The notes beneath the pieces were generated by a model. It made no database searches and had not been told where the DNA came from. It was given only the letters and a program-made list of their open reading frames with translations. DNA of 64,000 nt from an uncultured virus (IMG/VR IMGVR_UViG_3300018421_000009) (lineage: Duplodnaviria; Heunggongvirae; Uroviricota; Caudoviricetes), in the IMG/VR virus record IMGVR_UViG_3300018421_000009; one strand, given 5' to 3'. The position numbers and the translations under genes are program-made. Positions 1 to 28,035 of the stretch are shown here, piece after piece. Within the stretch, counting starts at the first letter, position 1. Every line of letters starts with the position of its first letter.

Positions 1-365
1 GCAGGCCACACATCTGTTAAAAACTTTTTAGTTACAGGGCATTGTTCTGCTACCCAAGTCCAGTCCAACTGTTTGATAGTTTCAGCACGATCGCCATAAC
101 TGTTTAGTGTTTGTGTATCTTCACTAAGTCCGTGTAGTGTAAGACTCTTCCAACCTTCTCCATAGTCAGTTCTGTGATCTTTAAAATATTCAAGTAACGC
201 TTCTGCCTCAATGTGCATCTCTTTCCAAGGTTGATTGTCTAATGCACTTAATTTAAAAAAAGGCCAGCCACTTTCCATTACAATCCATTTAGGATCGAAC
301 TGCTCTGGATACTTAAATTCGTATTCCTTGTTATTTTCTTGCCAGTACTGCTCTAGTTCTTTCAA
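1..365 (-). CDS. Partial ORF running off the left edge; probable Asp/Asn-beta-hydroxylase-like 2OG-Fe(II) oxygenase
   Basis: Not in the ORF track. Manual translation from TTG at 365 (GGAGG SD at 373-377, overlapping the TGA of the upstream gene) gives MKELEQYWQENNKEYEFKYPEQFDPKWIVMESGWPFFKL...GEGWKSLTLHGL...WTWVAEQCPVTKKFL, open to position 1. The W-x-S-L-x-L-H-G...CPVT pattern resembles the N-terminal part of AspH-like hydroxylases. The catalytic HxD lies outside the window. Confidence 0.6.
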   Translation of the reverse strand, partial: MKELEQYWQENNKEYEFKYPEQFDPKWIVMESGWPFFKLSALDNQPWKEMHIEAEALLEYFKDHRTDYGEGWKSLTLHGLSEDTQTLNSYGDRAETIKQLDWTWVAEQCPVTKKFLTDVWP

Positions 366-1141
366 AGCACTACCTCCATATTACACATTTTAACAATAGC
401 ATCTGTATGTGGTTTGCTTTGTAAATGACTGCGATTAATACCGCTACGATTAAATGTACCGTGGGGTACTGCGGCATTAATAATATATGCTTTACCTAAC
501 TGTAAATTATATTCTCTTTCTAGATTTTCTCCGTATGCAAATATAGCACCTTCGCCGGTTGTTACAGGAATATGTAATCGCTGTACGTTAGGACCGTCAA
601 TGTGTTTTCCTAATACTGCATCTGGTTGATGTTTTCTAATACTAACATCACGCAAAATATCCTCTCCAAAGTAATCTACTAGTTCTTTAAAATATCCAAA
701 CTTAAATTTTTCTTGTACACGTTTAGGTGCGTCAGTAGCAAGTTCAGGATATAGGTCTTCTCTGCCTGCCCATTTAGGAGGACAAGGAATATCTTTTTCA
801 ACAGGCCAACTAACTTCCATTACAAGTATTTCTTCTGGGTGTTCAAACTGTTCTTTAATGTAACGCACAATATGATAACCTTCGTCATGAACGCCTCTAC
901 CTTCTGCACCTACTTCTCCAGCAAATGCTGTTTCGATGTTTTTTAAATGATATTTGTCTTTAAGGTATTGTTCTTTACGCCAACTAAAATACAAGTTGTC
1001 ATATGTACTGTCTACTTGATTGTACCACTCTTGTAGTTTATCTATGTCTAGTTTCCAAGGTAGTTCAATAATGTCATATTCCAACCCATCTATAAAGTGT
1101 GGTGTAATTAGTTTCGGATCGTAATTTGATATGTACTTCAT
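362..1141 (-). CDS. 2OG-Fe(II) oxygenase / Asp-beta-hydroxylase-like cupin
   Basis: HID...RLHIPV...YIINAAVPHGTFN...RSHL gives an HxD...H iron triad plus a distal Arg. Confidence 0.75.
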   Translation of the reverse strand: MKYISNYDPKLITPHFIDGLEYDIIELPWKLDIDKLQEWYNQVDSTYDNLYFSWRKEQYLKDKYHLKNIETAFAGEVGAEGRGVHDEGYHIVRYIKEQFEHPEEILVMEVSWPVEKDIPCPPKWAGREDLYPELATDAPKRVQEKFKFGYFKELVDYFGEDILRDVSIRKHQPDAVLGKHIDGPNVQRLHIPVTTGEGAIFAYGENLEREYNLQLGKAYIINAAVPHGTFNRSGINRSHLQSKPHTDAIVKMCNMEVVL

Positions 1142-1151
1142 ATTGTACCCA

Positions 1152-1159
1152 TATTTATC
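1152..1159 (-). promoter_or_regulatory. Putative T4-like late promoter (GATAAATA)
   Basis: Reads GATAAATA on the minus strand, 10 nt upstream of the ATG at 1141. Confidence 0.5.
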
Positions 1160-2453
1160 AGCGATGATTTTGGCAATACTTATACCACGTCTCTAGTTCG
1201 GGGAATGTTTTTACTAGATCTAGATTACGTCTTATCTTTGTACGTTCTACCCATTTAACAACTTCAATCTTATCCGAGTTTGAATGTTTTCCAAAACTCT
1301 TTTTAATTGCTTTCATAAAGTCGGCATAGTAATTCCATTCAGGTGCGTTTTTGTTAATCCATTTAACAATATCATCAATGTAAGGTTTAAACTCTTTTGT
1401 TAGCATCCAAGGTGCTAGGTGTACCGGATATGAAACATTGCTTCTAATTAAATCAACATCACACCCTGTTTGTTCTTTTAACTGCTTTAACCATTGTAAA
1501 AAGTCTAAGCAACTTGTAATACTTAATGCACTGTGAGTTGTACTAAAACGTAGTCTAAAGTCTTTGCCTTCTGCAAACTCCATAATACGTTTTACATTAT
1601 TAGCAAACCTATCCCAGTTTAACCCAGTGCGAATAAATTCTGCTTTCTCTCCGTAACTTTCCATACTAATGTCCATTTGTACACTAGCATATTTTTCTAA
1701 CTCAGTAACCTTTTCAAACCACTTGTTTAGATATGCTTCCGGAGTATTGCCGTTACTAATTAAAATAATAACAGGTTTAATATTAAACTTGTTTGATTTC
1801 TTTTTAAACAATTCAATTAGTCTATCAAGATAATCATATAATTCATTTTGTATTAAAGGCTCTCCACCTAAAATATAATATTGTAGTACATTGTCAACAG
1901 CATCATCTAACCATTCATAAAAAGTATCTGCAAAGCCTTCCGGTGCTGTGTGCTTTTGTCTTGGTGTTTCTTCAAACTTGCGATTTTCAACTTCCCACTG
2001 ACTGCTGAATACATCATTACAGTATTGGCACTTTAAGTCGCAGGTGTTGTTAAAATAAACTTCAAGTTGACTAGGTAATGGCTCTAGCATATCTGCAGGA
2101 TTTTCAAAACGACCACGATGAAACTCAAAATACTTGCTAGGCAATCTTGGACTTCTTACTCCGCGTTTTTCGTTGCGCCAACAAGCACTACAATCTTTAT
2201 GTCTTATGTTATCTAGTTTTTCTTGTCTACGCTCTAGTTCGTATGGGTGTTTCATAAACACATCTTTGCCATACTTGTCTAGTTCTTCTTGTGTGATAAA
2301 ACGTTGCGGCACGTTATGACAATTCTTTACAATGCCTTCATTAAGGTGTACATAACAATGAATCCATTTCATTGCACACATAGCACTGTCGTCCATTACC
2401 TTGTCGCCAAGGTTGGCTTTCTTTATTGCTTCTGATAATGTTTCTTGTTTCAT
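1158..2453 (-). CDS. Radical SAM protein with N-terminal Cys-rich (twitch/SPASM-like) domain
   Basis: CDLKCQYC motif and GGEPL; N-terminal CAMKWIH..NCHN..CSACW. Start taken at ATG 2453 (MKQETL) rather than 2501, which overlaps the divergent gene. Confidence 0.9.
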   Translation of the reverse strand: MKQETLSEAIKKANLGDKVMDDSAMCAMKWIHCYVHLNEGIVKNCHNVPQRFITQEELDKYGKDVFMKHPYELERRQEKLDNIRHKDCSACWRNEKRGVRSPRLPSKYFEFHRGRFENPADMLEPLPSQLEVYFNNTCDLKCQYCNDVFSSQWEVENRKFEETPRQKHTAPEGFADTFYEWLDDAVDNVLQYYILGGEPLIQNELYDYLDRLIELFKKKSNKFNIKPVIILISNGNTPEAYLNKWFEKVTELEKYASVQMDISMESYGEKAEFIRTGLNWDRFANNVKRIMEFAEGKDFRLRFSTTHSALSITSCLDFLQWLKQLKEQTGCDVDLIRSNVSYPVHLAPWMLTKEFKPYIDDIVKWINKNAPEWNYYADFMKAIKKSFGKHSNSDKIEVVKWVERTKIRRNLDLVKTFPELETWYKYCQNHR

Positions 2454-2473
2454 AATTAAGTACGCACTTATTC

Positions 2474-2481
2474 TATAAATA
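2474..2481 (+). promoter_or_regulatory. T4-type late promoter TATAAATA
   Basis: Exact T4 late consensus 5 nt upstream of ATG 2487; no SD present. Confidence 0.75.
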
Positions 2482-2486
2482 TACTT

Positions 2487-3482
2487 ATGCCTTACTTGCA
2501 CCCAGACGAATTAGATACGATTGTAATTGATTTCACAAGTCATTGCAATTCAATGTGCGGAAATTGCAGTAGAAATCTAGACGGAGTTACAGTAAATCCT
2601 CGTATGCCTTTAGAGCATATGACACTAGACACTTGGTATAGTATCTTTACGCCAGATCTAAATATCAAAGAAGTTATCTTTAACGGTAGTTATGGTGATC
2701 CAATCTTTAATCCAAATTTAATTCCAGCACTAGAGCATCTAGCAAGTTACAAAAATCCACCCGTGGTTGTTATACACACAAACGGAGGATTAGGAACACA
2801 GTGGGCAGAACTAGCAACTGTATTACAATCTTTTCCTTTTGGTAGTCATGTTACATTTAGTATCGACGGATTAGAAGACACTAACCATTTATATCGCAGA
2901 GGAGTGTTATGGGATAAAGTAATGTCTAATGCTCGTACATTTATTGAAGCAGGTGGTATGGCTCGTTGGCGTATGTTGGTGTTTGAACACAACGCACACC
3001 AAATTGAACAGTGTGAACAACTAAGCATTGACATGGGTTTTAAATGTTTTGAAATTAATGGCGGACATACATTTAGTGCTATTAACAGTTTAACTAATAA
3101 AGCAATAGAAAGTTTTAAAGCAAACAAAAAAGAATCTGCACGTGAAATAAAATATGATTCAAAACATCTTGACAATGTAGAACGCATTAAAAACATTACA
3201 GACTTTTCTAAAACAACTGTTCAATGCAAATGGAAGGCAAAACGTAAAATACAAATTAGTCATATGGGCGAAGTATTTCCATGCTGTTATTTTTTAAGTG
3301 ATAGATATCCACGTAATCCGGACAGTCCTTATGCTGTAGACGTAGCAAGTATTGAATGGTTAAATGTAAAAGATTACAGTTTAGAAGAAATACTAAACAG
3401 CGAATGGTTTAGTAAGTATTTGCCTGAAAGTTGGAACAACGATAATAGATATGATATTTGTTCTAAGACTTGCGGTGTTTAG
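2487..3482 (+). CDS. Radical SAM protein with C-terminal twitch/SPASM-like domain (GxxGDP subtype)
   Basis: CNSMCGNC, GSYGDP, HTNGG, FSIDG; C-terminal QC...GEVFPCC...CSKTC. Confidence 0.9.
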   Translation: MPYLHPDELDTIVIDFTSHCNSMCGNCSRNLDGVTVNPRMPLEHMTLDTWYSIFTPDLNIKEVIFNGSYGDPIFNPNLIPALEHLASYKNPPVVVIHTNGGLGTQWAELATVLQSFPFGSHVTFSIDGLEDTNHLYRRGVLWDKVMSNARTFIEAGGMARWRMLVFEHNAHQIEQCEQLSIDMGFKCFEINGGHTFSAINSLTNKAIESFKANKKESAREIKYDSKHLDNVERIKNITDFSKTTVQCKWKAKRKIQISHMGEVFPCCYFLSDRYPRNPDSPYAVDVASIEWLNVKDYSLEEILNSEWFSKYLPESWNNDNRYDICSKTCGV

Positions 3483-4434
3483 GAAGTAAGAAACCTACTT
3501 GACACATACATTTTTCTTTTTCGCACGTAACAGGTTTTATAACAGGTTTAAATTTTTCTGCTAGTTGCGGATCGTATAAATTATATTCTCCAGATTTAAA
3601 CCCTAAAATATTATTCCCGCACACACTTCCTATACTTCCGTCAAAGTTTATAAACACTGTATCAACACCTAAGTTACATCTCCAACCTTTAAAGTTATTT
3701 AAATTGTTTATTAGAACATAGTTTTTTGATACTTCTTGTGTACTACCATCTTCATATGTTAATAACACTGGAGGTTTAGATTTCTTAGGTTTAAAAATTT
3801 CGTCTTGCTTAGGATTTCTTTTACGTTGGTTTAGTAGATACTGCGACTGTTCATATGTTGTGTCTTGTGTTGTATTTCCTAATTTAATAGGTTTAACATT
3901 TACAGGAAAACTTGTTTCACTTTCTAACAATCTATCTACAATAGTTACACAAGTGTCCCAATCCTTTGTATCCATAAGCACATCACAAATAACATTGTTA
4001 TGTTTACTCCATAACATATCTGCTAATTTACTAACGTGTTCTACATCAATACGTTCGTGATGACAACTAATGTAAACAGTGTCAAACTCACCGCCATTTT
4101 TCTCCCACCATGATAAAGTTCTGCTACCGTTTGTACTTAAATGAAACGTACAGCCGAGGTTACGAAAGTGTTGTGTAAATTTAATTAACTCTGGCCATAG
4201 TGTAGGTTCTCCACCAATTAGGTCTATTTGAAATTCTGTTTTACCAATTTTTTTATAGCAGTTAATAATATGTTCTAAATTTTTAGTTGCTAACTCTAGA
4301 TCAGGCCAGCGATATGTGCCTTCATGACTGCCAGGGAAACAGTACCAACAGGCATAATTACAAGTGTTACCCATTTGATAATTAATATCAATCCTATTTT
4401 TTGGATGATGGTTTGTAAGTGAAGTTAACTGCAT
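3463..4434 (-). CDS. Radical SAM protein (CNYxCxYC-P subtype, C-terminal Cys cluster)
   Basis: CNYACWYC, GGEPT, STNGS; C-terminal GWRCNLG...VC...CEKEKCMC. Confidence 0.9.
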   Translation of the reverse strand: MQLTSLTNHHPKNRIDINYQMGNTCNYACWYCFPGSHEGTYRWPDLELATKNLEHIINCYKKIGKTEFQIDLIGGEPTLWPELIKFTQHFRNLGCTFHLSTNGSRTLSWWEKNGGEFDTVYISCHHERIDVEHVSKLADMLWSKHNNVICDVLMDTKDWDTCVTIVDRLLESETSFPVNVKPIKLGNTTQDTTYEQSQYLLNQRKRNPKQDEIFKPKKSKPPVLLTYEDGSTQEVSKNYVLINNLNNFKGWRCNLGVDTVFINFDGSIGSVCGNNILGFKSGEYNLYDPQLAEKFKPVIKPVTCEKEKCMCQVGFLLPKHRKS

Positions 4435-5301
4435 ATGGAATATTTATTGCCTGAAAAAGTATATTGGAATAAGCCTGGTATTACAGTAACATATTCTAAC
4501 GGCGAAGATTTGCTTCCGTTAACTTACATATTATATGATCACCACCCAGCACAGAAATTCTTGTATTTGCTACAAGAAAATATTAATAAACCACTAGTGC
4601 AAGAAACAAGTTTTGTACTAGATACAAAAGATGAAGAAGAATTAAAGCAAGAAATTGTAAATCTTACAACTAGTTTAAATATCGATCCAAACACTTCGTT
4701 AAATGATTTACACAAACTTGTAGAAAATACAAAGTCCTCAAACGAGGATTATGATAAGTTAAATCGACTTATTCATACATACGAACAGTTTTTAAGTAAT
4801 CAAGACTCTCCTCGCATTAATAGTTTTTTTAGATTTGACGGTGCTACTACATTACCAATTGAGAATGAAGATTTATTATATTTTAGAATGGATAGAAGTT
4901 TTGGTGACTTGTGCATGGGTTATAACACTCTAGGCAAACATTGGTTAGAGATTTGTGGTAGAGGTGAAAGTGATAGAATTAACGAGATAGTTACCCAACA
5001 GCATATCAACTGCGAGGGATATATGTTATATCGTTCTGCATACGAAACTCCATTCACAGTTACAAAACACTTTGTTGATTGGTATAAGAAAAATGTAAAC
5101 AAGCCAATTACATTAGATATGGCATTAGGTTACATCGTTGTAGGAAAATTAGTTATGCCTTTAGAATGGAATAACGTGTATAACTTAGATAGAGATATCT
5201 GGACAAGAATGTTAAGCAAATATAAAAATATCGTAAGTGTTGAACTAACAGAAATCACTAACAACGCAAATGAATTAATGCACAAGGCTCGTATGCTATG
5301 A
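4435..5301 (+). CDS. Hypothetical protein
   Basis: 288-aa ORF, translationally coupled (ATGA) to the next radical SAM gene; contains GDLCMGYNTLGKHW; no family recognised. Confidence 0.7.
   Translation: MEYLLPEKVYWNKPGITVTYSNGEDLLPLTYILYDHHPAQKFLYLLQENINKPLVQETSFVLDTKDEEELKQEIVNLTTSLNIDPNTSLNDLHKLVENTKSSNEDYDKLNRLIHTYEQFLSNQDSPRINSFFRFDGATTLPIENEDLLYFRMDRSFGDLCMGYNTLGKHWLEICGRGESDRINEIVTQQHINCEGYMLYRSAYETPFTVTKHFVDWYKKNVNKPITLDMALGYIVVGKLVMPLEWNNVYNLDRDIWTRMLSKYKNIVSVELTEITNNANELMHKARML
4441..4448 (-). promoter_or_regulatory. Putative late promoter (AATAAATA) lying inside the divergent gene
   Basis: AATAAATA on the minus strand, 6 nt upstream of ATG 4434, within the first codons of the plus-strand ORF. 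Confidence 0.5.
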
Positions 5302-6332
5302 GATGTAAACTTTTAGAAAGTCATGTATACATTGCGGCTAACGGTCAATATCGATTATGTTGTACTAGCAACGAACCCAACAATGTAGAAACTGTACACA
5401 CTCATACTCCACAAGAGTGGCTTAACAGTCAACCTGTTGTAAATGCTAAAGAACTTCTAGCAAAGGACGAATGGCCTGATGCTTGTATTACTTGTAAGCG
5501 ACACGAAGAAGCAGGAATACCTAGTAGACGACAACAAAAAGATTTTTACGGTCCTGATATAACACACTTAGATTTACGGTTTGGAAATAGTTGTAACTTT
5601 AAATGTATAAGTTGTCATAGTGGTGCAAGTAGTAGCATCGCAGAAGAAGCCGCAGAGATGGCTAAACAAAATTTAAATCCATATCATACTGTACTAGATG
5701 TAAAAAATTACAACTGGTATGATGAAAAATTTTTACACTACTTTGAAAACTTGCCACTAAAAGAAGTTTATCTTACAGGCGGCGAGCCTATGATGGTTAA
5801 ACACTTGCCTCAGTTTTTAGAAAGGCTAGACTCAAGTGTTACTATTCGTTTTAATACAAACGGAAGTTTATTCAATCCTCGTGTACAAGACTTGCTCAAA
5901 CGCTTTAACCGTGTTATAATGAGTGTAAGTATGGATGCTGTAGGAAAAAGAATTGAATACATTAGATACGGTGCGGATTGGAAAACTGTAGAAGAAAATA
6001 CATTGCGTTATAAAGATATGTATAAGACAGATATTGCTCCTTGTTTAAGTATATTAAACAGCGCCTACCATAATGAATTATTAGAATGGAGTGATAAGCA
6101 TAACTTACAGGTTTGGGAAAATTATCTTTCTCAACCTGATTGGTTACACGTTAAAAATGCTCCAGATAGTTTAAAAGAACAATTTAAAATTAACACAAAC
6201 TGGTTTAGTGAAACTGCTGATACAAATCAACAAAGAATTTTTGTTGAAGAAATTACAAAATTAGATAAATTTAGACGTGTAAATATTAAGGACTACTTAC
6301 CAGAAGTAGCACAGGCATATGGAATTAATTAA
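5298..6332 (+). CDS. Radical SAM protein with N-terminal twitch-like domain
   Basis: CNFKCISC, GGEPM, NTNGS; N-terminal C...YRLCC...CITC. Confidence 0.9.
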   Translation: MRCKLLESHVYIAANGQYRLCCTSNEPNNVETVHTHTPQEWLNSQPVVNAKELLAKDEWPDACITCKRHEEAGIPSRRQQKDFYGPDITHLDLRFGNSCNFKCISCHSGASSSIAEEAAEMAKQNLNPYHTVLDVKNYNWYDEKFLHYFENLPLKEVYLTGGEPMMVKHLPQFLERLDSSVTIRFNTNGSLFNPRVQDLLKRFNRVIMSVSMDAVGKRIEYIRYGADWKTVEENTLRYKDMYKTDIAPCLSILNSAYHNELLEWSDKHNLQVWENYLSQPDWLHVKNAPDSLKEQFKINTNWFSETADTNQQRIFVEEITKLDKFRRVNIKDYLPEVAQAYGIN

Positions 6333-6774
6333 AGTTAATAAAGAAAAAGCACGTAGGGTTTACAAACTTGATAATTGCTATAAAAAAGTTTGGCACTACC
6401 TTGACGAAGAGTGGTTAGAATGGCACGTTGATGTTCTAGATGAATTAGTACCTGGATACGTACAATCACATGGCATTGAAGATGGAAATATGTATATTTG
6501 CTTTAATATTATTCCAGGTAAACCTGCAAGTGAGTTTGAACATACTCCAGAATTTGTAGATAAGATTTATAACTTCTGTGTTAGCAACATAAACGAAACT
6601 AGTCCATATGCACACGGAGATTGGGTGCTAAGTAATATTATTATCGACGGTGATAAAATATCTATGTGTGATTGGGATAACGTTGGCATATATAATCCTG
6701 AAGAAGTTTTAGAAAAACTAGATAAAGATTTAAAAAGTGCCTTTGGAGAAAAGATTGACACCACAAGCATTTAG
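6319..6774 (+). CDS. Small kinase/phosphotransferase (APH/protein-kinase-like fold)
   Basis: HGDWVLSNIII...CDWD matches the HGDxxxxN catalytic loop and Dx[D/E] metal-binding motif; only 151 aa. Confidence 0.7.
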   Translation: MELIKVNKEKARRVYKLDNCYKKVWHYLDEEWLEWHVDVLDELVPGYVQSHGIEDGNMYICFNIIPGKPASEFEHTPEFVDKIYNFCVSNINETSPYAHGDWVLSNIIIDGDKISMCDWDNVGIYNPEEVLEKLDKDLKSAFGEKIDTTSI

Positions 6775-19803: not shown

Positions 19804-20480
19804 GATTGTTTACCTTTGGATGTTCGTACACCGAATACATTTGGCCGACATGGAGTGATATAATTGCAAAAGATTTAGACTGCGAAAATCATAATTATGC
19901 AAAAGCAGGCATGGGCAATCAAGGTATTGCTTGCCGCACTATAGAAGCAAATGAAAAACATAATTTTAATCAAAATGATCTTGTTTGTATTTTATGGAGC
20001 AGTTGGCAAAGAGTTGATTTACTTAAAGAAGGCAAATGGGTAACTGAAGGTAATATTTTAAACAGTGACTATTACAGCGACGAATATCTAAGTAACCACT
20101 GGAGTGAAGAAAACGATATAATTAGAAACAAAACAGCAATATTGCAAACAAATGCATACTTAAAATCTTTTCATGTAGATTTATTTCAAGGACACAAAGA
20201 TAAAGTTGATGAAAATTTGCCAGGTGCTGAAAACGTATTTCCTAGAACAAAAAACGTTTATGTTACCGACTCGCACCCAAGTATATTAGAACATATGCGT
20301 TATGTAGAAAATACAATTTATCCGTACCTCGGATATACACTAAAACAAACAACTAAAGACTGGTGTAATGAAATGGAGATAATCGTACAACAAATCAAAG
20401 GTGAAAATTCTAGAATGAGTAATCTTGATTTAGAAGATTTAATTTTAAAACACTGGCCTGGAAGGGTTTCATATGTCTAG
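19800..20480 (+). CDS. SGNH/GDSL-hydrolase-like protein
   Basis: FGCSYT, NYAKAGMGN, DSHP; paralog of 16225..17043. Confidence 0.55.
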   Translation: MRLFTFGCSYTEYIWPTWSDIIAKDLDCENHNYAKAGMGNQGIACRTIEANEKHNFNQNDLVCILWSSWQRVDLLKEGKWVTEGNILNSDYYSDEYLSNHWSEENDIIRNKTAILQTNAYLKSFHVDLFQGHKDKVDENLPGAENVFPRTKNVYVTDSHPSILEHMRYVENTIYPYLGYTLKQTTKDWCNEMEIIVQQIKGENSRMSNLDLEDLILKHWPGRVSYV

Positions 20481-21441: not shown

Positions 21442-21925
21442 AGGATTTTTACCAGTCTTATGGGACGAAAGTTACAAAGACTTTGATTATATTAGACAAC
21501 CTATTACAGGTGAAGAATCGGATATGTGGCGTGAACAAGGTTACACTCACAACACAACAACAGGCAAAATGTACGACAGTCGAAACCCAATGCCTGAGTG
21601 GGTCAACGATGTTGCTAAACGTATTAACTTAAAAAATACAGGCTTTGTGTTTTACCGTATGGATACTCTAGACATTATGCCAACACACGTAGATCATTTT
21701 AATACCTACTGTCGTGTGTTTAATCAAGAACGTAATGATGTAAGACGTGCTATTGTATTTTTAGAAGACTGGAAGCCAGGACATTACTTTGAAATAGACG
21801 GCACTGCTGTTGTAAATTATAAAGCAGGTGAATATGTATTATGGAATCCAGATGTACCACACGCGGCTAGTAACATAGGCGTTGATCCAAGATATACACT
21901 ACAAATTACAGGCACATTTTTCTAA
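21431..21925 (+). CDS. 2OG-Fe(II) oxygenase
   Basis: PTHVD...RAIVFLEDWKPGHYF...PHAASN..RYTLQITG (HxD...H...R). Confidence 0.8.
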   Translation: MWSRGFLPVLWDESYKDFDYIRQPITGEESDMWREQGYTHNTTTGKMYDSRNPMPEWVNDVAKRINLKNTGFVFYRMDTLDIMPTHVDHFNTYCRVFNQERNDVRRAIVFLEDWKPGHYFEIDGTAVVNYKAGEYVLWNPDVPHAASNIGVDPRYTLQITGTFF

Positions 21926-23058
21926 TGTTTGTACAAGATTTGTTTTGGCAAAACATTCCTAGTATGCGAGATAAAAATAGAGGAATGTTAGCAGAACTAT
22001 TCTTAAAAAGTTTTCTAAAAGATTCAACCCGTCCTACGTTTGTTTACACAGGCACTAACCATATTAAACAGTTTAATGAGTTAGAATTTAGTATTAAAAC
22101 TATTAACAAGTTAAAAAGACGCGGTGTTGACATTTACTTGTACGAACCTGTTAGTCCTTACATAAAAGGAACTAAACATAATAATCATTTTTATAGCGAA
22201 TTCAATTCTAATGACAATTTATGTGCAGATGAATTAGACAGCATAGTTGAATGGCAAGAAAAATACGATATTAAAAACGTTAATGTGTACACAGGCGATT
22301 ATGATGTACAAAAATACTATTCTAAAAATTATCCTAGTTTAAATCTACACTGCTTAGATATTTTCCTACGTGATTTTTTTTGCGGTAGCGGAAGCCAATT
22401 AAACTTCAAATACAATAAAAAGTTTATTTGTCCTAATTGGCGTTACACTAAACATAGACATTTAGTTTCTGCATTTTTAGTTGATAAAGATTGTCATTTA
22501 AGTTGGAACTTTAGAACTAACTACGAGTTGTTAATGGATGGTACTTGGATTGATTTAGATGCGTGGAAGTATGAAAATATAATTAAAAAAAATATTAATA
22601 TACTTAATAAAAATACCCCGTATGTGTTAGATTACAACAATGCAGAAACAACCGACGCTGGTATGAAACATTGGCCTATGTTTGCTCCTGAAGGTAAAGG
22701 ACTAGAGGGATTTTATATAGACAGTATGTGTGCTATTGTTAATGAAACACGCTTTGCTCAACCAACTGCTAACTTTAGTGAAAAAACTTTTAACGCTATG
22801 TTATATGGACGACCTTTTATTATGGTCGGCCCACCTCACACACTAAAGTATCTACAAGAATTAGGATTTAAAACATTTAACGAGTTATGGAGTGAAGAAT
22901 ACGATTCAATTGAAAATCATACAGAACGTATGAATGCTATATTTGAGTTGATTGAAACTGTTGAAAAAGAAAATTACAATTTAGAAGATATTAAAGCAAC
23001 ATTATTACATAACCAAGCAATGGTTAGCAACTTTCACAAAAACGATAAAACTCTTTAA
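21925..23058 (+). CDS. Glycosyltransferase-like protein, paralog of 18224..19183
   Basis: NWRYTKHR...IVNETRF..FSEKTF..GRPFI...GFKTFNELWSEEYD. Confidence 0.55.
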   Translation: MFVQDLFWQNIPSMRDKNRGMLAELFLKSFLKDSTRPTFVYTGTNHIKQFNELEFSIKTINKLKRRGVDIYLYEPVSPYIKGTKHNNHFYSEFNSNDNLCADELDSIVEWQEKYDIKNVNVYTGDYDVQKYYSKNYPSLNLHCLDIFLRDFFCGSGSQLNFKYNKKFICPNWRYTKHRHLVSAFLVDKDCHLSWNFRTNYELLMDGTWIDLDAWKYENIIKKNINILNKNTPYVLDYNNAETTDAGMKHWPMFAPEGKGLEGFYIDSMCAIVNETRFAQPTANFSEKTFNAMLYGRPFIMVGPPHTLKYLQELGFKTFNELWSEEYDSIENHTERMNAIFELIETVEKENYNLEDIKATLLHNQAMVSNFHKNDKTL

Positions 23059-24391
23059 ACTCGGGAAATGTTTCTACTAGGTTGGTTCCTCTTCTTCTAT
23101 CATATTCTTTAAACCAACTAGCAAAATTACGCCTACCATTTAATAGTTTCTTTTCGTCATACTCTGTTTTACGCATATAATCAACTACACGTCTTAGACG
23201 TTCATATTCCAAACTACTAAATTTTGTTCTATCCTTATCGTCTACATTGTTTTGCATAAACAATAAATGATTCATCATGTATGGCATAAATTCATCTTTA
23301 GGAAGTATGTTCATATCAAACTGAATAGGCTCTTTTAAATAAGGTGTATCAAATCTAATACGTTGCCATTTAGTTTGTTCATCTGTATTATACTTCTTGC
23401 GCCACTCTAATATTTTATGTAATAAATCATCAAAACTTGTAACAACAAATAAATTAAATGTAACCATAAATGTTACAGGCCAACCTGTTTTAGTTAGATA
23501 ATAATCTAAGTTTGATTCCCATAATTTTAAATCTAATCCTGTACGTGTATACTCTGCACGAGGACCCCAGGTATCGATACTTGTATATAATTTAAAACTG
23601 TTAATACAGTTTTTATCTTTTAATACTTTTAAACGTTCTACAAGTTTTACTATACGTTCTGGCTTAACACCCATATTGCTATTAAGTTCTATATTGAGAT
23701 GTGGTTTAGGATTTGCTTCTAATTCGTCAAACAATCTCCAGGTACTATTGTGCATTAACGGTTCGCCTCCGGTAACACGTAAAATGTTTAGTGTCTTACT
23801 TACTTCAGGCCACCACTTCCACCATGCTTCTACATATGGGTTAGTTTCTTCTTTGTATAATTCAAAATAATCAATATCATTGCGATGTGCTGTACTGTCT
23901 TTATAAGGACCATGCTTTTTGATCTCGTTATAATATCTGCTACTAAACTTAGGATGACAGTAACCGCATTTAAAGTTACACTGGTTACTAAAATTAATTT
24001 CAATATACTCTGGATTAATATCATAATCCCAAGGATTACTTTTAATTTCTTCTATACGTTCCGGGGTGTATATACTCGCTGTTTTAATATGTCTATCGCT
24101 AATGTAATCTTTGCCCATACACTCAATATTCCAACAGTACTGACAACCACTAGGTTTTTCACCTTGCAACATTAAACCGCGTTCACGTTTCTTTTCAGGT
24201 GTGTTGTGTAATTGACTAGGATTATCTTGTAATCCTTCTAAGGGAATTTTATGTGGAGCCGGATGATAACAACTGTGTGTTTCACCAGTTTGTAAATAGA
24301 TAGTAACATGATGCCATTTAGCCAAACAAAAGGTAGGAGAGATTTCATCAATCTCTGGCATAATAGATTTTATTCGCTGTACTTCACTCAT
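23024..24391 (-). CDS. Twitch-domain radical SAM protein
   Basis: FCLAKWHH..SCYHP..CQYCW N-terminal domain; CNFKCGYC; TGGEPL. Closest in pattern to 1158..2453. Confidence 0.92.
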   Translation of the reverse strand: MSEVQRIKSIMPEIDEISPTFCLAKWHHVTIYLQTGETHSCYHPAPHKIPLEGLQDNPSQLHNTPEKKRERGLMLQGEKPSGCQYCWNIECMGKDYISDRHIKTASIYTPERIEEIKSNPWDYDINPEYIEINFSNQCNFKCGYCHPKFSSRYYNEIKKHGPYKDSTAHRNDIDYFELYKEETNPYVEAWWKWWPEVSKTLNILRVTGGEPLMHNSTWRLFDELEANPKPHLNIELNSNMGVKPERIVKLVERLKVLKDKNCINSFKLYTSIDTWGPRAEYTRTGLDLKLWESNLDYYLTKTGWPVTFMVTFNLFVVTSFDDLLHKILEWRKKYNTDEQTKWQRIRFDTPYLKEPIQFDMNILPKDEFMPYMMNHLLFMQNNVDDKDRTKFSSLEYERLRRVVDYMRKTEYDEKKLLNGRRNFASWFKEYDRRRGTNLVETFPEFKEFYRFCESC

Positions 24392-24635
24392 ATTCTATCC
24401 AGTTAAATATACCACGTATTGCTAACAGCAAATAAAACAATTCCATGAGTGCTCTCGGCACATCCTTGTCCTTAATTCCCATCCAAATCCATATTGTACA
24501 ACTTAGGCAAGCAACTGCCCAACCTATCCATTGCAGTTTGGCATTACCGCCACTAAGTATAAAAGCACCTACCATAGCCAAGACGAATCCTAGCCAACGC
24601 CAGCCATCTATGTTATGATAGTATCTAATTTTCAT
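24384..24635 (-). CDS. Small membrane protein (about 3 TM helices; PnuC/SemiSWEET-like size)
   Basis: 83 aa with three hydrophobic segments (WLGFVLAMVGAFIL; WIGWAVACLSCTIWIWMG; LMELFYLLLAIRGIFNW); overlaps both neighbours. Confidence 0.65.
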   Translation of the reverse strand: MKIRYYHNIDGWRWLGFVLAMVGAFILSGGNAKLQWIGWAVACLSCTIWIWMGIKDKDVPRALMELFYLLLAIRGIFNWIEYE

Positions 24636-25522
24636 TTACGTCTAATAACCCTATCACTATTTACATAAACAGTTTTAAAAAATTTACTTTGCAAACTATC
24701 GTATGGAACAACTGCAATAGGTAAGTCTAATTCGTTAATTAATTTTTTACCAACTTCTTTTGCTTCTTCTGCTGGATTAACAGTTTCATGTTCTTTCCAT
24801 AATTCTTTAAGATATTCAAAGTCACGTGTTTGTGTATGATCCCAATCAGTACACATTGTTTTATAACAGCCTAGTCTTGCTCCGTAGATTGCCCATATGC
24901 CGTCTGGCACATCACAACCTACCATTTGCCATATGTAAAGTCTATGTCTATTTTGCCACCATAACTGTTCTTCAATATCAGTTACCTTAGTACCCCTATC
25001 TAATGACATCTTTACACCTTCACGAAAGCCTGCTCTCCATGCTTGTAAAGGACTGCCTGTAATAATACTGCTACTATAGTTTTCGTTTAGTTGATAATAG
25101 TTGTCAAAATAACAAAACTCAATACTAGTTTCGTTTGTACCGTCTGTATTTTCGTGTGTACGCATATTCTTTACAAACTCTTTTGTCCACATCTTCAAAC
25201 TTCCGTTACCGTACATAAGTCCGTTAACATCAATTTTACCGCACCAACTAAATTGATAGTCGTCATCTACACCTAGTTTGTCTAAGTCTAATTCAACTTG
25301 CATAAATCGAGGATCAACAATAGTGTCACCGTCAACTGTTACAAAATGTTTTGTATCTGATAAATCGGCACAGGCTTTATGTGCGGCATCACTGCCTTCA
25401 ACACCGTGTACTCTTTTTGCCCAAGGCACTTTACGTTTTAAGTCTGCCCAATTTTCTTCAGCATTAGGCTCGTCATAACTTAAAAAGATAATATCAACAT
25501 CTTGTATTTTAATTTTTGACAA
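24632..25522 (-). CDS. GT-A-fold (GT2-like) glycosyltransferase
   Basis: DIIFLSYDEP...VTVDGD...YGNGSLK...AWRAGFREG. Start at TTG 25522 with a GGAG SD; the ORF track starts at 25567. Confidence 0.65.
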   Translation of the reverse strand: MSKIKIQDVDIIFLSYDEPNAEENWADLKRKVPWAKRVHGVEGSDAAHKACADLSDTKHFVTVDGDTIVDPRFMQVELDLDKLGVDDDYQFSWCGKIDVNGLMYGNGSLKMWTKEFVKNMRTHENTDGTNETSIEFCYFDNYYQLNENYSSSIITGSPLQAWRAGFREGVKMSLDRGTKVTDIEEQLWWQNRHRLYIWQMVGCDVPDGIWAIYGARLGCYKTMCTDWDHTQTRDFEYLKELWKEHETVNPAEEAKEVGKKLINELDLPIAVVPYDSLQSKFFKTVYVNSDRVIRRK

Positions 25523-26090
25523 CTTGTACTCCGTAACTGTTAAAGACTTTAGTAGTGTAAACGTCAAACTCTATTATACTATCATTTTCATTAAATTGCA
25601 AGACTAAATCGTTTGAACTTAAATCAAAATTTAATTCTCTATATAGAACATATGGGTCATTTTTCTTTACAATACTAAATTGTTTTTTAGTTTGTAATGT
25701 TACATTGTTTTTATCTAGTGTTTTTTGAAACAATTTACCAAATGTTAATTCCCATTGTTGCGTTATGTAATTTTTAACTAAAATAATATCTGCACTATCA
25801 TTTTCTTGTACTTTGTAAAAACTATTATTAACATTGTACTCGTATGCTTTTTCTTCGTGTACATTTACAAGTTCATACATAGTTGATGCAGGATTAAACA
25901 ATACTTTGTAGTGTTTGTAAAATGCTTTGCCTTCGATAATATCTCTAACACTATCGTATTCAACTTCAATACTATGTTCGCCAAGAGGCGAGTCGCTAAA
26001 ACTATCAATGTAACCAGTAGTTACATTAAAGTTAGCATATGTTGGTGCTGGTTTTATAGGAACTTCAGTCCAATCTTTTAAATCTGTCAT
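25509..26090 (-). CDS. Hypothetical protein
   Basis: Fills the gap between glycosyltransferase genes; start at ATG 26090 (MTDLKD). No motif recognised. Confidence 0.65.
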   Translation of the reverse strand: MTDLKDWTEVPIKPAPTYANFNVTTGYIDSFSDSPLGEHSIEVEYDSVRDIIEGKAFYKHYKVLFNPASTMYELVNVHEEKAYEYNVNNSFYKVQENDSADIILVKNYITQQWELTFGKLFQKTLDKNNVTLQTKKQFSIVKKNDPYVLYRELNFDLSSNDLVLQFNENDSIIEFDVYTTKVFNSYGVQVVKN

Positions 26091-26883
26091 AAAACTTTCC
26101 TGTAAAATCTTTTTCTGTATAGTGGAACACTGTGTTTTGTAACCAACCACCAACTCTTAAATTTAAATCGTCATCAACAAAACAAGTAATTCTGTCTTGC
26201 CATTTCTTTGTTTGTGTTTTCCAACTTTGTAAGTATGGCTTCATGTGTACAAAAGTAGGAAACGGTAACTTTTTGTTAGTAACTAAATGTTCACAGTCTA
26301 AAACTCTAATAGTAATTGCTGTACATACATCTACACTTAAAAACTTTTGCATTTTCTTAGGAGCATACTTTTCATAATAGTATTCCCAGTTCTTCATTAC
26401 TTCTTCTAAGCAAGTATAAAACTTTTTTGCAAAGTCTGACTTCTTAAAGTAGTGCAATGCTACATAAGTGTCTGGTAATTTGTTTTCTATAAACATTTTT
26501 CTATAGTAACTTGTGTCAGGTTTTTCAAACTTGTAGTCTGTAACTGCTGTTGTATAGAACACATCATAATTTTGCATCAAGTTCCACCAGTTTGACAGAT
26601 CTTGTTGTACTAACATATCAGTATCTAGCACAAAAGTTGCGTCATATGGACAAGCATGATATATCTTCCAACGGTTTTGTACTTTCCATTTGTGTTCTTC
26701 GCCGGCATCTTCCCAAGGAATAGGTACAATGTCGTCAAACAGTTCTTTGTTTTCTACTACATCATTTGTAATTAGGCATATTTTACTTTTAGGGTTAGTA
26801 TTCCTAATACTCATTGCTAGTAATTCTGCTTGACGTATGTAATTGTCTTCGTTATTTTGTGCAAGGACTGTAAAATTAGGCAT
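26065..26883 (-). CDS. GT8-like glycosyltransferase
   Basis: LLAMSIR...RWKIYHACPYDATFVLDTDML (DxD)...FVHMK. Confidence 0.7.
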   Translation of the reverse strand: MPNFTVLAQNNEDNYIRQAELLAMSIRNTNPKSKICLITNDVVENKELFDDIVPIPWEDAGEEHKWKVQNRWKIYHACPYDATFVLDTDMLVQQDLSNWWNLMQNYDVFYTTAVTDYKFEKPDTSYYRKMFIENKLPDTYVALHYFKKSDFAKKFYTCLEEVMKNWEYYYEKYAPKKMQKFLSVDVCTAITIRVLDCEHLVTNKKLPFPTFVHMKPYLQSWKTQTKKWQDRITCFVDDDLNLRVGGWLQNTVFHYTEKDFTGKFYDRFKRLD

Positions 26884-27694
26884 TGGCTATTTCCCTGTTT
26901 AAACTAAACTTGTTCATAACGTGAATATTAATGCCACTTGTTTTTAATAATGTATATTCGCCTGTTCTATTTTGTTTTTCAACAAGCAACTTTATGTTTT
27001 CGTTATCAATTTTATTCAGTACATCGTTATGTGTACTATAAATCATTCTTCCTGGTAACTCTTTTACACCACCAACAATGTGTGCCGCAATACTAAACGC
27101 ATAGTCATTGCGATACACTGTGCTTGTAATTTGATATAGGTTACGATAGTGTTGATAGTTTTCTTTAATGTGTTTTAATAAGTTAAAGAAAATCTTATTT
27201 TTGTTGTTTTTTCTAAAAAATACACAAGTTGCCCAATAAAATTTTATACTTGTTTCACTAATTAATTTAAATTCGTCTGTATTGCGCCAGCCTGTAATAT
27301 CAACTGCACTTGAATACATCATTAAATCGTTTACACTGTCAAAACAGTTTGCTAATAAACTGTTTGAAATAATATAATCTGTATCAAGTATTAGCGTATT
27401 ATCATATGGTGTTACATCGTATGCATCTGTACGATTATAATTTTTAAAGTCTAGTGTTTTTTTAGATAAACTACCATCAGCATATGTTTTTTTATTCCAG
27501 CGTTTGTTATCTAGTACAACAATATTGTCAAATACACTAGAGTCGTAGTATTCTTCTACACGTTTTTTATCGTCAGTAACAAGAGTTGTAGGAAGGTTAA
27601 GGTACTGTGTTACACGCTTTGCTAAAAAGCAAGCCTGTGCAACATAATCTATTTGAGCATTGTTGTATGCAAATAAAAGTACACCATTTGTCAT
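26876..27694 (-). CDS. GT8-like glycosyltransferase, tandem paralog
   Basis: RTDAYDVTPYDNTLILDTDY (DxD)...RNDYAFSIA...HVMNK. Confidence 0.7.
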   Translation of the reverse strand: MTNGVLLFAYNNAQIDYVAQACFLAKRVTQYLNLPTTLVTDDKKRVEEYYDSSVFDNIVVLDNKRWNKKTYADGSLSKKTLDFKNYNRTDAYDVTPYDNTLILDTDYIISNSLLANCFDSVNDLMMYSSAVDITGWRNTDEFKLISETSIKFYWATCVFFRKNNKNKIFFNLLKHIKENYQHYRNLYQITSTVYRNDYAFSIAAHIVGGVKELPGRMIYSTHNDVLNKIDNENIKLLVEKQNRTGEYTLLKTSGINIHVMNKFSLNREIANA

Positions 27695-28035
27695 TCTACT
27701 AAGCCGTCAACCGTTCTGCTTGACTCTAACTTTTTATATGCTATATGATAATCGTTTAGAGCAACAAAGTATTTGTTTGTGATGTTTGAATAGAAGTCTT
27801 CAACATCTGCTATCTCAATCGGAATATCGTTGTCGTCAATCAAAACAGATGACTCTTGCCCAGTGTTAACCAAAATGTTAACATAGTTAATAAGTTCTTT
27901 TGATATAGTGAATTGGCCGCCGTTGGTAAAATAGATAGAGTCTGTTACAAACTTTTCGTGTAACATACGTTTTTGGTTATCTAACGTGGCAGAATAATTG
28001 CCAAATTCCAAGGCTTTTTCTAACTTCTCATCCAT
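27691..28035 (-). CDS. Hypothetical protein
   Basis: 114-aa ORF heading the glycosyltransferase operon, with a late-promoter motif directly upstream. Confidence 0.7.
   Translation of the reverse strand: MDEKLEKALEFGNYSATLDNQKRMLHEKFVTDSIYFTNGGQFTISKELINYVNILVNTGQESSVLIDDNDIPIEIADVEDFYSNITNKYFVALNDYHIAYKKLESSRTVDGLVE

Follow-up and report, generated by a model that had tools for sequence, protein, structure and literature searches.

The window analysed here, a 64,000-nucleotide stretch of DNA from an uncultured tailed virus (IMG/VR record IMGVR_UViG_3300018421_000009), carries in its first 28,035 positions an island of closely packed genes in which ten radical S-adenosylmethionine (SAM) enzymes and other tailoring enzymes accompany a core of sugar-nucleotide enzymes and glycosyltransferases. 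A first-pass annotation, made from the sequence before any database search, had proposed such a phage-borne cluster, and our searches bear it out. The island is a large, well-preserved example of a module type that has been published for other phages and left uncharacterised. It tracks with the tail-fibre genes across related phage records and has a putative late promoter motif in common with structural genes, and the closest cellular relatives of its core and sugar genes appear, by sequence comparison, to lie in glycan-type loci of Bdellovibrionota. We propose, tentatively and with somewhat less than even confidence, that the island encodes a late, cytoplasmic pathway that builds a glycan containing an amino or guanidino sugar and decorates virion proteins with it, most likely the fibres.

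Ten radical SAM enzymes of three classes

The island set comprised 33 non-nested open reading frames (ORFs), o1-o33, in window positions 1-28035, and family searches used E-value thresholds of 0.01 for Pfam, 1e-4 for PHROGs and 0.001 for NCBIfam, at which 15 of the 33 ORFs had no match in any of the three collections. Pfam Radical_SAM (PF04055) matched 10 of the 36 proteins submitted; nine of these reached the 29.5-bit gathering cut-off, and the tenth, o27, scored 28.7 bits, yet 314.4 bits on the NCBIfam model NF033640. The CX3CX2C motif, which binds the SAM-cleaving 4Fe-4S cluster, was present in all ten and in none of the other 28 ORFs among the 38 scanned. The first-pass count of ten radical SAM ORFs with this motif was thus upheld by Pfam, by NF033640 and by the motif itself.

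Pfam and NCBIfam matches, together with BLASTP paralogy, divide the ten enzymes into three classes. Class A consists of o3 (1158-2501, minus strand; 222.9 bits on NF033640, with CX3CX2C at residue 154), o7 (5298-6332, plus strand; 231.2 bits), o11 (9074-10189, plus strand; 237.6 bits), o14 (11720-13045, minus strand; 426 bits) and o27 (23024-24391, minus strand), all of which are members of NF033640, at 223-426 bits against a 170-bit cut-off; the scores listed on this model for the remaining five radical SAM ORFs, 18.5-65 bits, place them outside the family. In class A the twitch domain precedes the catalytic core, with Pfam SPASM found at residues 3-92 in o7, o11 and o14, and four N-terminal cysteines are invariant in the five paralogues. 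NCBIfam names this family N_Twi_rSAM and assigns no reaction to it, and full-text literature searches turned up no paper on the function of NF033640 or on how it has expanded in Bdellovibrionota. The most conserved gene of the island is o14, which has 4382 homologues and is 47-51% identical to Bdellovibrionota genes; among the isolate phages tested we found no close relative of it, the best being that of RsoM2USA at 25% identity.

Class B comprises o4 (2487-3482, plus strand; 29.9 bits on Radical_SAM and 29.9 bits on SPASM) and o15 (13017-14003, minus strand; 43.5 bits on Radical_SAM), which have a C-terminal SPASM domain and are 31% identical to each other. The o15 profile, when compared with the Protein Data Bank (PDB), matched SkfB best (8.5e-9), then BlsE (1.2e-7), and also BtrN (5.5e-4). 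The short paralogues o5 (3463-4434, minus strand; 41.3 bits), o12 (10169-11074, minus strand; 42 bits) and o17 (14599-15576, minus strand; 52 bits) make up class C. The o17 family has four additional invariant cysteines near its C terminus (C266, C286, C307 and C312), and o17 is ~50% identical to genes on a bacterial chromosome (L151) and on a 558-kb contig (L140).

Sugar-nucleotide enzymes and glycosyltransferases

Two of the sugar enzymes foreseen in the first pass were confirmed by family or profile evidence. The nucleotide-sugar dehydrogenase is o20 (17040-18227, minus strand), which matches three UDPG_MGDP_dh domains of Pfam (the N-terminal and central ones above cut-off, the C-terminal one below) and phrog_9148 (5e-95), and which keeps the catalytic cysteine motif GGSCxPxD when aligned to UGDH 3vtf. 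Because its score on TIGR03026, 156.6 bits, falls under the 189.8-bit cut-off, we regard o20 as a divergent member of the nucleoside-diphosphate (NDP)-sugar 6-dehydrogenase family. The amidinotransferase is o24 (20473-21441, plus strand), which has no Pfam match; a profile of its family, built from 10 sequences, found StrB1 of the streptidine branch (1bwd) in the PDB at 1.5e-108 over essentially the whole length (positions 2-341 of 342), better than AGAT, SxtG and HsvA at ~1e-70. The pair H311-C312 is invariant in 10 of 10 family members and presumably corresponds to the catalytic cysteine of StrB1. A phage relative, ORF309 of Synechococcus phage S-SCSM2R, is 64% identical to o24.

The predicted DegT aminotransferase, o22 (19213-19803, plus strand), stood as to family and fell short as to size. 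This pyridoxal phosphate (PLP)-dependent enzyme candidate matches Pfam DegT at 2.4e-20, and its lysine-bearing stretch SFQ..K..G.GGA aligns to residues 178-213 of AHBA synthase; among its PDB matches is 2-deoxy-scyllo-inosose aminotransferase (4.7e-6). At only 196 residues, however, it is half-size: relative to AHBA synthase ~55 internal residues and the C-terminal domain are missing, and it lacks the complete fold-type I PLP fold (~360-390 residues) despite keeping the lysine motif. It is 55% identical to S-SCSM2R ORF305 and 45-47% identical to Bdellovibrio genes, whose products are likewise short (219-222 residues). Half-length DegT proteins of 196-222 residues are in fact conserved in phages and Bdellovibrio alike (19213-19803 on the plus strand of the window, L085:13275-13934, L100:13270-13938 and L161:9287-9874), and the half-size form could be a minimal enzyme or a subunit that requires a partner.

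No GT family was found in Pfam for any island ORF even at E-values up to 5 (GT, glycosyltransferase), so none of the six GT-like ORFs of the first-pass annotation has Pfam behind it; four of them stand by structural model or paralogy, and two are leads. Family profiles of o18 and o26 found nothing among PDB sequences, and their folds therefore had to be predicted. The AlphaFold2 model of o18 (15551-16237, minus strand; mean pLDDT 91.5) gave 48 Foldseek hits at E<=1e-3, of which those shown were GT-A glycosyltransferases and the nucleotidyltransferase HddC (rank 24); the top hit, 9omm, reached 4e-5 with a TM-score of only 0.42. Together with the pair D57xD59, invariant in 16 of 16 family members, this points to a nucleotide-sugar-dependent transferase of GT-A fold. 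A second GT-A-like protein, o29 (24632-25567, minus strand), is related to o18 (BLASTP 8e-22, 32% identity over 209 residues) and keeps the DxD motif. For o26 (21925-23058, plus strand), which belongs to a family of 430 homologues with no Pfam model, the predicted structure (pLDDT 89.9) is of GT-B fold, with VIA Z-scores from 11.4 (root-mean-square deviation 4.8, 261 residues aligned) to 9.3 that are tied over at least 50 GT-B entries of many acceptor types. A probable GT-B relative, o21 (18224-19276, minus strand), matches o26 at 5e-7 over 89 residues and shares its invariant columns. The remaining pair, o31 and o32 (together 26065-27694, minus strand), are paralogues (1e-6) whose nearest Atlas clusters are named nucleotide-diphospho-sugar transferase and then PF03407/PF01501; a DTD motif is visible by eye, and Pfam at E-values up to 5, its GT8-type GT-A model included, returned no match, so that a nucleotide-diphospho-sugar-transferase-like assignment is a lead only.

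The island sits behind the fibre genes of a T4-like phage

The right half of the window encodes a T4-like set of virion and replication genes recognised by PHROG matches, including a gp6-type baseplate wedge protein (50222-53662; phrog_10646, 6.5e-291), gp25-, gp5- and gp53-type proteins, a gp55-type late sigma factor (59522-60439; 4.8e-79) and gp47/gp46-type nuclease subunits. The gp6 homologue is ~35% identical to those of the jumbo phages Phosso, GAP32 and Atu_ph07. The nearest related record (G001) spans 61 kb, and CheckV puts two longer relatives, G002 (156.6 kb) and G003 (98.7 kb), at 44% and 28% completeness, which extrapolates to a genome of roughly 350 kb. The window's phage is a T4-like marine giant phage.

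Directly flanking the island is a fibre module (28059-35330, minus strand) consisting of a 310-residue protein, three fibre paralogues (1e-34 to 1e-51) and a conserved 204-residue protein, with PHROG matches to tail fibre and tail collar families and a Pfam Collar match of 2.4e-15. A blastn comparison of this region with GenBank phages gave no match. Across related phages, o14 relatives were confirmed in 161 of 180 candidate stretches from viral contigs. Four loci keep all 22 genes from o4 to o25 in order, at 51-97% identity, and more distant loci keep a core of o4, o7, o8, o11, o12, o14-o18, o20 and o1 with variable inserts. All five related records that we compared have 8-10 radical SAM genes within one stretch of ~22-26 kb, and in all five this stretch begins 11-13 kb after the homologue of o38, the gene beside a giant ORF that lies between baseplate and fibre genes. 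The synteny comparison that the first-pass annotation had called for therefore shows the island tracking with the fibre module in five of five records. The window stretch was also present in 18 salt-marsh DNA runs. We considered whether a host lipopolysaccharide (LPS) or capsule locus had been misassembled onto a phage contig, and we exclude this because the same junctions recur in independent contigs and because G+C content is uniform (0.31-0.37 in the island versus 0.33-0.40 in the rest of the window).

Some first-pass statements about the island's layout needed revision. The close packing, with almost no spacers, is real: there are two intergenic gaps, of 16 nt (1142-1157) and 23 nt (28036-28058), and every other pair of neighbours abuts or overlaps. 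The island is not on one strand, as had been stated, for plus-strand blocks occupy 2487-3482, 4435-10189 and 19213-23058, and the direct run-on from the fibre genes holds for o33 to o27 only (28035 down to 23024). Nor is position 1 its left edge. In G003, where the order is fibres, o34-o30, the island and then o3-o1, the left boundary lies outside the window and the island extends ~7.7 kb past the window start: to the left of o1 are a 489-residue protein with no assigned function, three more paralogues of Asp/Asn beta-hydroxylases and a tryptophan-halogenase-like gene (8e-72), followed by a strand switch. The G003 stretch beyond the window's left end (L159:6621-7721 and L159:8198-10202) holds, besides the halogenase-like gene, a fragment of an AMP-binding enzyme and a protein with the N-terminal domain of Mtd, the major tropism determinant. 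Within the island, divergent gene pairs at 4434/4435, 2487-2501 and 19213-19276 have their starts back to back without a spacer or their coding ends overlapping, and the promoters of these pairs must consequently sit within the neighbouring gene.

A late-type promoter motif before island and structural genes

The window encodes a homologue of gp55, the reader of T4-type late promoters (TATAAATA-like), whose core in T4 is ATAAATA. This heptamer occurs nine times in the 64 kb, counting both strands, versus 35.4 +/- 5.6 in shuffled sequence, and all nine copies lie 6-32 nt upstream of a start codon on the same strand. Four copies belong to the island: 1152-1158 (minus strand) precedes o2 by 17 nt, 2475-2481 (plus strand) precedes o4 by 12 nt, 4441-4447 (minus strand) lies 13 nt upstream of o5 and within o6, and 19207-19213 (plus strand) lies 6 nt upstream of o22. 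The other five precede structural genes, namely a fibre gene, the gene of the 204-residue protein, the gp6- and gp25-type genes and the gene at 58559-59437, and none precedes the gp55, gp47 or gp46 homologues. The full T4 octamer, TATAAATA, has only two copies versus 10 expected; the informative motif is the heptamer. Of the six promoter positions listed in the first pass, those at 1152, 2474/5, 4441 and 19206/7 are exact matches, whereas 28041 reads GTAAATA and 19189 does not match. Scans for sigma-70 promoters (81 versus 85.1 +/- 9.8) and for terminators (14 versus 9.9 +/- 3.0) were at chance.

The same motif recurs among the relatives. ATAAATA has 101 copies in the 80 related loci scanned (1.04 Mb). 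Of these, 56 are followed within 45 nt by the start of an ORF of 80 or more residues, and they precede orthologues of o22 (13), o21 (10), o5 (6) and o4 (6); 14 precede ORFs without an island match, and the other 45 of the 101 remain unplaced. On sequence grounds, we read this pattern as that of a functional promoter element that has been purged elsewhere, one by which the structural genes and at least some of the island are linked, and its distribution suggests late expression of the island. Contigs from four RNA-library runs, short and with exact matches, fall on the fibres and on eight or more island genes, although DNA carry-over is possible and these contigs are no proof of transcription, its strand or its timing.

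Cellular relatives in Bdellovibrionota

With the class A alignment we scanned prokaryotic genomes, one for each species; 358 of the 421 candidate stretches proved to hold relatives, and 70 of the 78 loci that we kept have Bdellovibrionota-type labels in their record titles, with the caveat that the kept loci are the best matches and so a biased sample. These bacterial homologues are real. On the 2.9-Mb chromosome of L151, ten radical SAM genes stand in a row, including o14-like (48%), o17-like (50%) and o15-like (38%) genes, and the row adjoins a GT2 gene, a PMT_2 GT-C gene and an amine oxidase gene. The L140 relatives neighbour dnaG on the 558-kb contig; within 21 kb, L091 packs nine genes of class A together with one of class C; and L103 brings together o16-, o18-, o14-, o15-, o17- and o4-like genes, the core of o14, o15 and o17 with o16 and o18 being 35-51% identical, while L111 has the same set minus o18. 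The Bdellovibrionota genomes L151, L091 and L103 have radical SAM genes in rows of seven to ten, drawn from the same three classes, and these arrays look like a lineage-specific expansion; literature searches returned no paper linking Bdellovibrio to these enzymes.

A Bdellovibrio operon (L085) provides a cellular counterpart of the sugar module. Its genes, with overlapping ends, encode a class A radical SAM enzyme, an o20-like dehydrogenase (47%), an epimerase of the short-chain dehydrogenase/reductase (SDR) type, and o22-like (47%), o26-like (30%) and o24-like (45%) proteins, with YdjC, GT2 and o15-like genes alongside. The same set recurs in the isolate Bdellovibrio sp. HCB2-146 (L100), where genes for a polysaccharide lyase, a UDP-glucose dehydrogenase and a UXS-like SDR are nearby. 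The five window paralogues fall into five separate clades of a maximum-likelihood tree built from 41 class A proteins, in which some bacterial rows come from short contigs of metagenome-assembled genomes that may be mis-binned phage DNA. The o14, o11 and o27 clades each have their own bacterial neighbours with starred support (o11 with its own bacterial sisters, o27 nested among bacterial rows), which indicates that the paralogues are older than the exchange between phage and bacterium. We considered a Bdellovibrionota host for the phage, since its nearest cellular homologues are found there, and do not claim one, as identities of 45-54% and a G+C content of 0.34 versus 0.43-0.48 do not settle the matter.

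Other genes of the island and its surroundings

The four 2-oxoglutarate (2OG)-dependent Fe(II) oxygenases named in the first pass all remain as candidates, two reasonably supported and two weak. At the left end, o1 (3-365, minus strand) is the N-terminal 121 residues of an Asp/Asn beta-hydroxylase-type Fe/2OG oxygenase whose gene leaves the window; its G003 orthologue (L159:1500-2195, 231 residues) is 99% identical over those 121 residues and matches Pfam Asp_Arg_Hydrox at 7e-15. The beta-hydroxylase-like o13 (11071-11784, minus strand) has H154, D156 and H204 invariant in 16 family sequences, and its profile matches the beta-hydroxylase 7v4o at 2e-4. The weaker two are both sub-threshold: o2 (362-1141, minus strand), a probable Asp_Arg_Hydrox-like Fe/2OG oxygenase (1.3e-3; 19.1 bits, under the 22.6-bit cut-off) in which HxD...H is recognisable by eye and which is paralogous to the three hydroxylases left of the window in G003, and o25 (21431-21925, plus strand), a small cupin or Fe/2OG-like protein with weak Cupin_2 (0.015) and PhyH (0.13) matches that is 29% identical to S-SCSM2R ORF308, annotated as a 2OG oxygenase.

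The methyltransferase, the kinase and the two SGNH-like ORFs of the first-pass annotation are present as leads, by a weak match for o16 and by motifs for the rest. The methyltransferase-like o16 (14003-14602, minus strand; Methyltransf_25 1.5e-3, sub-threshold) is conserved in 91 related ORFs, 11 of them from bacterial-collection loci. The small kinase-like o8 (6319-6774, plus strand) keeps H99, D101, N106, D118 and D120 invariant in 17 sequences and has weak matches to kinase catalytic loops (PDB 0.035; Pfam APH/RIO 0.06-0.08). At motif level o19 (16225-17043, minus strand; DUF6473 6e-4, sub-threshold) is SGNH-like, and it has a GCSYTEG block in common with its paralogue o23 (19800-20480, plus strand; BLASTP 4e-7), which has no family match. 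Of the genes left unassigned, o6 (4435-5301, plus strand) has no family in Pfam, PHROGs or NCBIfam, starts where the o5 start abuts it and is conserved in 14 related ORFs; o9 and o10 (together 6737-9107, plus strand) are paralogous proteins (2e-16) with internal repeats, a weak Kelch match (0.08) and, for o9, only Reg_prop as an Atlas lead, and are probably beta-propellers; o30 (25509-26153, minus strand) has no family match and a G003 orthologue of 62% identity; and o33 (27691-28035, minus strand), the first gene after the fibre block, has no family match and GTAAATA 12 nt upstream. The island's only membrane-protein candidate is o28 (24384-24635, minus strand), an 83-residue hydrophobic protein, its hydrophobic stretches judged by eye, that resembles the first helices of the nicotinamide riboside transporter PnuC (NMN_transporter 3.5e-3, sub-threshold). 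Among the 33 ORFs, Pfam, NCBIfam and PHROGs revealed no flippase, polymerase, ligase, initiating transferase or GT-C enzyme.

Beyond the island, the three consecutive fibre genes (29006-34711, minus strand) have their N-terminal ~290 residues in common (31-39% identity) and differ in their C-terminal parts, one having a Peptidase_G2/IMC-type end and one, at 32636-34711, a Tail Collar domain. The giant ORF between baseplate and fibre genes (35352-50216, minus strand) encodes 4954 residues, has one FG-GAP repeat (1.4e-5) as its sole Pfam match, and is probably the counterpart of 'VrlC', the giant protein found in the host-recognition clusters of pelagimyophages. Near the right end of the window, a 146-residue protein (63493-63933, plus strand) matches phrog_447, labelled NAD synthetase, at 5.8e-40 and, more weakly, homing endonuclease families.

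A possible pathway and its alternatives

We read the island as sugar chemistry because glycosyltransferases and nucleotide-sugar enzymes share the Bdellovibrio operon with a class A radical SAM enzyme, and because the radical SAM core travels with a GT-A gene. In the pathway that we envisage, o20 would oxidise an NDP-hexose to the uronate, and a keto intermediate would then form, a step for which the Bdellovibrio operon has an SDR and the phage, which has none, may use a radical SAM enzyme instead; that BlsE, the second-best match of class B among solved structures, is a cytosylglucuronate decarboxylase gives a weak hint in this direction. The keto sugar would be aminated by o22, and o24 would turn the amine into a guanidino group with arginine as the amidino donor. 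Radical SAM enzymes, Fe/2OG oxygenases and the methyltransferase-, kinase- and SGNH-like proteins might edit the sugars further, and the six GT-like proteins would transfer them to an acceptor. The predicted targets are virion proteins, most likely the fibres, which would be decorated in the cytoplasm during late assembly. We favour this acceptor because the promoter motif is common to island and structural genes, because the island has a fixed place behind the fibres, and because no membrane-bound glycan machinery was found.

Several points weigh against this reading. Both the acceptor and the product are predictions. Exact ATAAATA precedes four island genes only, with none at the plus-strand block from 4435 or the minus-strand block from 19276. 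The half-size DegT protein may be inactive, no sugar-1-phosphate nucleotidyltransferase was recognised in the island (unless it is o18, whose fold is common to HddC), and two of the GT-like assignments, like the kinase-like and SGNH-like ones, are at the level of motif or lead. The top Foldseek hit of the o26 model is a DNA-modifying enzyme, T4 beta-glucosyltransferase (5.4e-5). Peptide maturation is what SPASM/twitch radical SAM enzymes are best known for, and PDB profile searches left the substrate class of the island's enzymes unrevealed, the matches to SkfB and BlsE and the weak ones to anSME and viperin being uninformative. The bacterial counterparts adjoin envelope-type GT2 and GT-C enzymes, company more in keeping with surface glycans than with virions. 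Authors who have described related clusters favour host-surface modification (PMC7029224, PMC12801897) or secondary metabolites (PMC2938197).

These points bear on the alternatives to different degrees. The island could remodel the host envelope, altering the LPS, capsule or another surface glycan of the infected cell, for example to block superinfection. Such a role is taken for the GT genes of the same region in the accessible text of two reports (PMC7029224, PMC12801897), and the bacterial homologues do lie beside GT2, PMT_2 GT-C, YdjC and polysaccharide lyase genes. We nevertheless consider it unlikely, as we found no initiating phosphoglycosyltransferase, flippase, polymerase, ligase or Gtr-type membrane enzyme (o28 being the only membrane candidate), and as the island's promoter motif is that of the structural genes, whereas exclusion functions are expected early in infection, as in T4. 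The product might instead be a soluble specialised metabolite, a cationic pseudo-oligosaccharide of aminoglycoside- or nucleoside-like type that is released or kept in the cell and acts against the host, competitors or other phages. The StrB1-type amidinotransferase, the DegT protein, the APH-like kinase motif, the BtrN match and the GTs form an aminoglycoside-like set; the tryptophan-halogenase-like gene and the AMP-binding fragment left of the window in G003 point the same way; metabolite synthesis has been proposed for the dioxygenase and halogenase arrays of cyanophages (Iyer et al., 2010; PMC2938197), and the authors of the S-SCSM2R report label their module 'antibiotic synthesis genes' (PMC12801897, available sections). 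However, Pfam and NCBIfam revealed no inositol-phosphate or 2-deoxy-scyllo-inosose synthase, no exporter and no resistance gene, the aminoglycoside-enzyme matches other than StrB1 are all weak and generic, and a virion function accords better with the late-type motif and with the island's constant position after the fibres, so that we regard a metabolite as rather unlikely.

We give still less weight to the view that radical SAM enzymes and hydroxylases modify virion proteins directly, through cross-links, epimerisation or hydroxylation, with the sugar genes as a side module. SPASM/twitch enzymes are typically peptide maturases, the sub-threshold NCBIfam matches are mostly to such families, and there are at least six Asp/Asn beta-hydroxylase-type paralogues in and beside the island. 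Tail-collar proteins have, moreover, been proposed as dioxygenase substrates (Iyer et al., 2010; PMC2938197, available part), and the window has the Collar-domain fibre gene at 32636-34711. What makes this quite improbable in our view is that, in L085, translational coupling links an N-terminal-twitch enzyme with the sugar operon, that the radical SAM core travels with a GT-A gene in bacteria, and that the two small gaps leave no room for a precursor peptide gene; none of the kind that encodes peptides synthesized on the ribosome and modified after translation was found in the gaps, with ORFs under 80 residues nested in other frames left unscreened. Least likely of all, and in our judgement highly improbable, is that the GTs place a tailored sugar on a modified base of the phage DNA, much as T4 glucosylates hydroxymethylcytosine. 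The beta- and alpha-glucosyltransferases of T4 are among the best structural matches of o26, but o26 ties in Z-score with many GT-B enzymes whose acceptors are proteins or teichoic acids, and an o26-type GT-B is found in the chromosomal sugar operon of Bdellovibrio as well. DNA-modifying genes would, besides, be expected before late transcription. Campylobacter phages with an analogous module have fully modified DNA, according to the available text (PMC10516641); in the present group, a thymidylate-synthase/hydroxymethylase family was found in 0 of the 5 related records, which is weak evidence given that these are 16-44% complete. Weighing these alternatives, we keep to the decoration of virion proteins, most likely fibres, as our tentative reading.

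Relation to known systems

The first-pass annotation noted no comparable cluster in T4 and named no characterised pathway of this composition. Taken as a claim that comparable clusters do not exist, this was overstated, similar modules having been published in 2010, 2020 and 2025, all of them left without a function. The T4-like Campylobacter myoviruses CP220 and CPt10 have 11-12 radical SAM genes per genome, and in the available part of the report an interchangeable cluster of five radical SAM genes and a putative glycine amidinotransferase has no function assigned (Timms et al., 2010; PMC2853527). The CP220 cluster (L162) combines a pentein amidinotransferase with two nucleotide-diphospho-sugar transferases and adjoins baseplate genes; three of its genes match class B (o15) over the full length at 21-26% identity, and its amidinotransferase is 24% identical to o24. 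Identity to the window's genes is nonetheless much lower, no N-terminal-twitch members, DegT protein or dehydrogenase were found in CP220, host and habitat differ, and the island in the window is about three times larger.

The cultured T4-like phage S-SCSM2R (ORF301-310, L161) has the same sugar module, with a half-size 'AHBA synthase' (55% to o22), GTs including a GT2, a small 2OG protein (29% to o25) and an inosamine amidinotransferase (64% to o24), and with a PrnA halogenase nearby; it differs in having a single radical SAM gene in the block, which is not beside fibre genes in the stretch viewed. In the available sections of the 2025 report, the half-size aminotransferase, the radical SAM gene and the inosamine amidinotransferase are grouped as 'antibiotic synthesis genes' for a reason that its authors call unclear (PMC12801897). 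Purified S-SCSM2R virions contain a second amidinotransferase (ORF266) and a prolyl dihydroxylase (ORF269), as the same sections report (PMC12801897), which implies that such tailoring enzymes are abundant late in infection, or packaged.

For pelagimyophages, the accessible text describes a host recognition cluster, a fibre-side hypervariable region with GTs, a UDP-glucose dehydrogenase and radical SAM cassettes for which modification of the host O-chain was proposed (Zaragoza-Solas et al., 2020; PMC7029224), and a 183-kb T4-like marine genome is reported, likewise in available text, to encode an Fe-S carrier besides its 12 radical SAM genes (Nishimura et al., 2017; PMC5332604). The window resembles these pelagimyophage and cyanomyophage clusters in its giant protein, tail fibres, GTs and radical SAM cassettes; they have an Fe-S carrier elsewhere in the genome, and G002 also encodes one, of A type. 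The available parts of the two papers give gene classes only, with no family-level dissection, amidinotransferase module, promoter analysis or link to Bdellovibrionota (PMC7029224, PMC5332604), and by its gp6 homologue (~35%) the window's phage is nearer to jumbo phages of the GAP32/Atu_ph07 type than to pelagimyophages. Literature searches on marine jumbo phages combined with radical SAM enzymes returned nothing. Arrays of distinct Fe/2OG dioxygenases and tryptophan halogenases have been described from Syn9-type cyanophages, where they belong to the plastic part of T4-like marine phage genomes (Iyer et al., 2010; PMC2938197). Such genes lie directly left of the window in G003; that analysis dealt with dioxygenases and halogenases, not with the radical SAM and sugar core.

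Among better understood pathways, the streptidine branch has in StrB1 the best counterpart of o24, but the island has no cyclitol synthase, its DegT protein is half-size, and a guanidino sugar as product is a prediction. The route to UDP-4-amino-4-deoxy-arabinose (UDP-Ara4N) runs through Ugd, ArnA and ArnB, and the order of dehydrogenase, SDR and DegT genes in the Bdellovibrio operon resembles its logic, although the phage is without the SDR. Virus-encoded glycosylation of virions is known from the capsids and tails of mycobacteriophages and from the fibril glycan clusters of mimivirus, where soluble cytoplasmic GTs and sugar-nucleotide enzymes act on structural proteins; to our knowledge, neither system includes radical SAM enzymes or an amidinotransferase.

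The island takes up about a tenth of the estimated 350-kb genome, an outlay that must bring some return; the phage's relatives are, moreover, abundant, to judge from the 4382 o14 homologues and the 18 salt-marsh DNA runs. It brings together five members of a radical SAM family with no assigned reaction and a candidate route to a guanidino sugar, which, if true, would be new chemistry: no glycoconjugate has yet been reported with such a positively charged unit in its glycan. We can imagine, as a doubtful but specific idea, that marine giant phages and the predatory Bdellovibrionota share a pathway in which N-terminal-twitch radical SAM enzymes would carry out a new radical chemistry on nucleotide sugars and a StrB1-type enzyme would make a guanidino sugar, to be attached to the adhesive fibres with which both predators catch their Gram-negative prey. 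Because parts of the module are present in the cultured phages S-SCSM2R and CP220, and the operon in a Bdellovibrio isolate, the role of the radical SAM genes of T4-like phages, open since 2010, can be tested at the bench. If the product is placed on the fibres, it would bear on host recognition and on the ways in which surface chemistry is evaded or exploited by phage particles.

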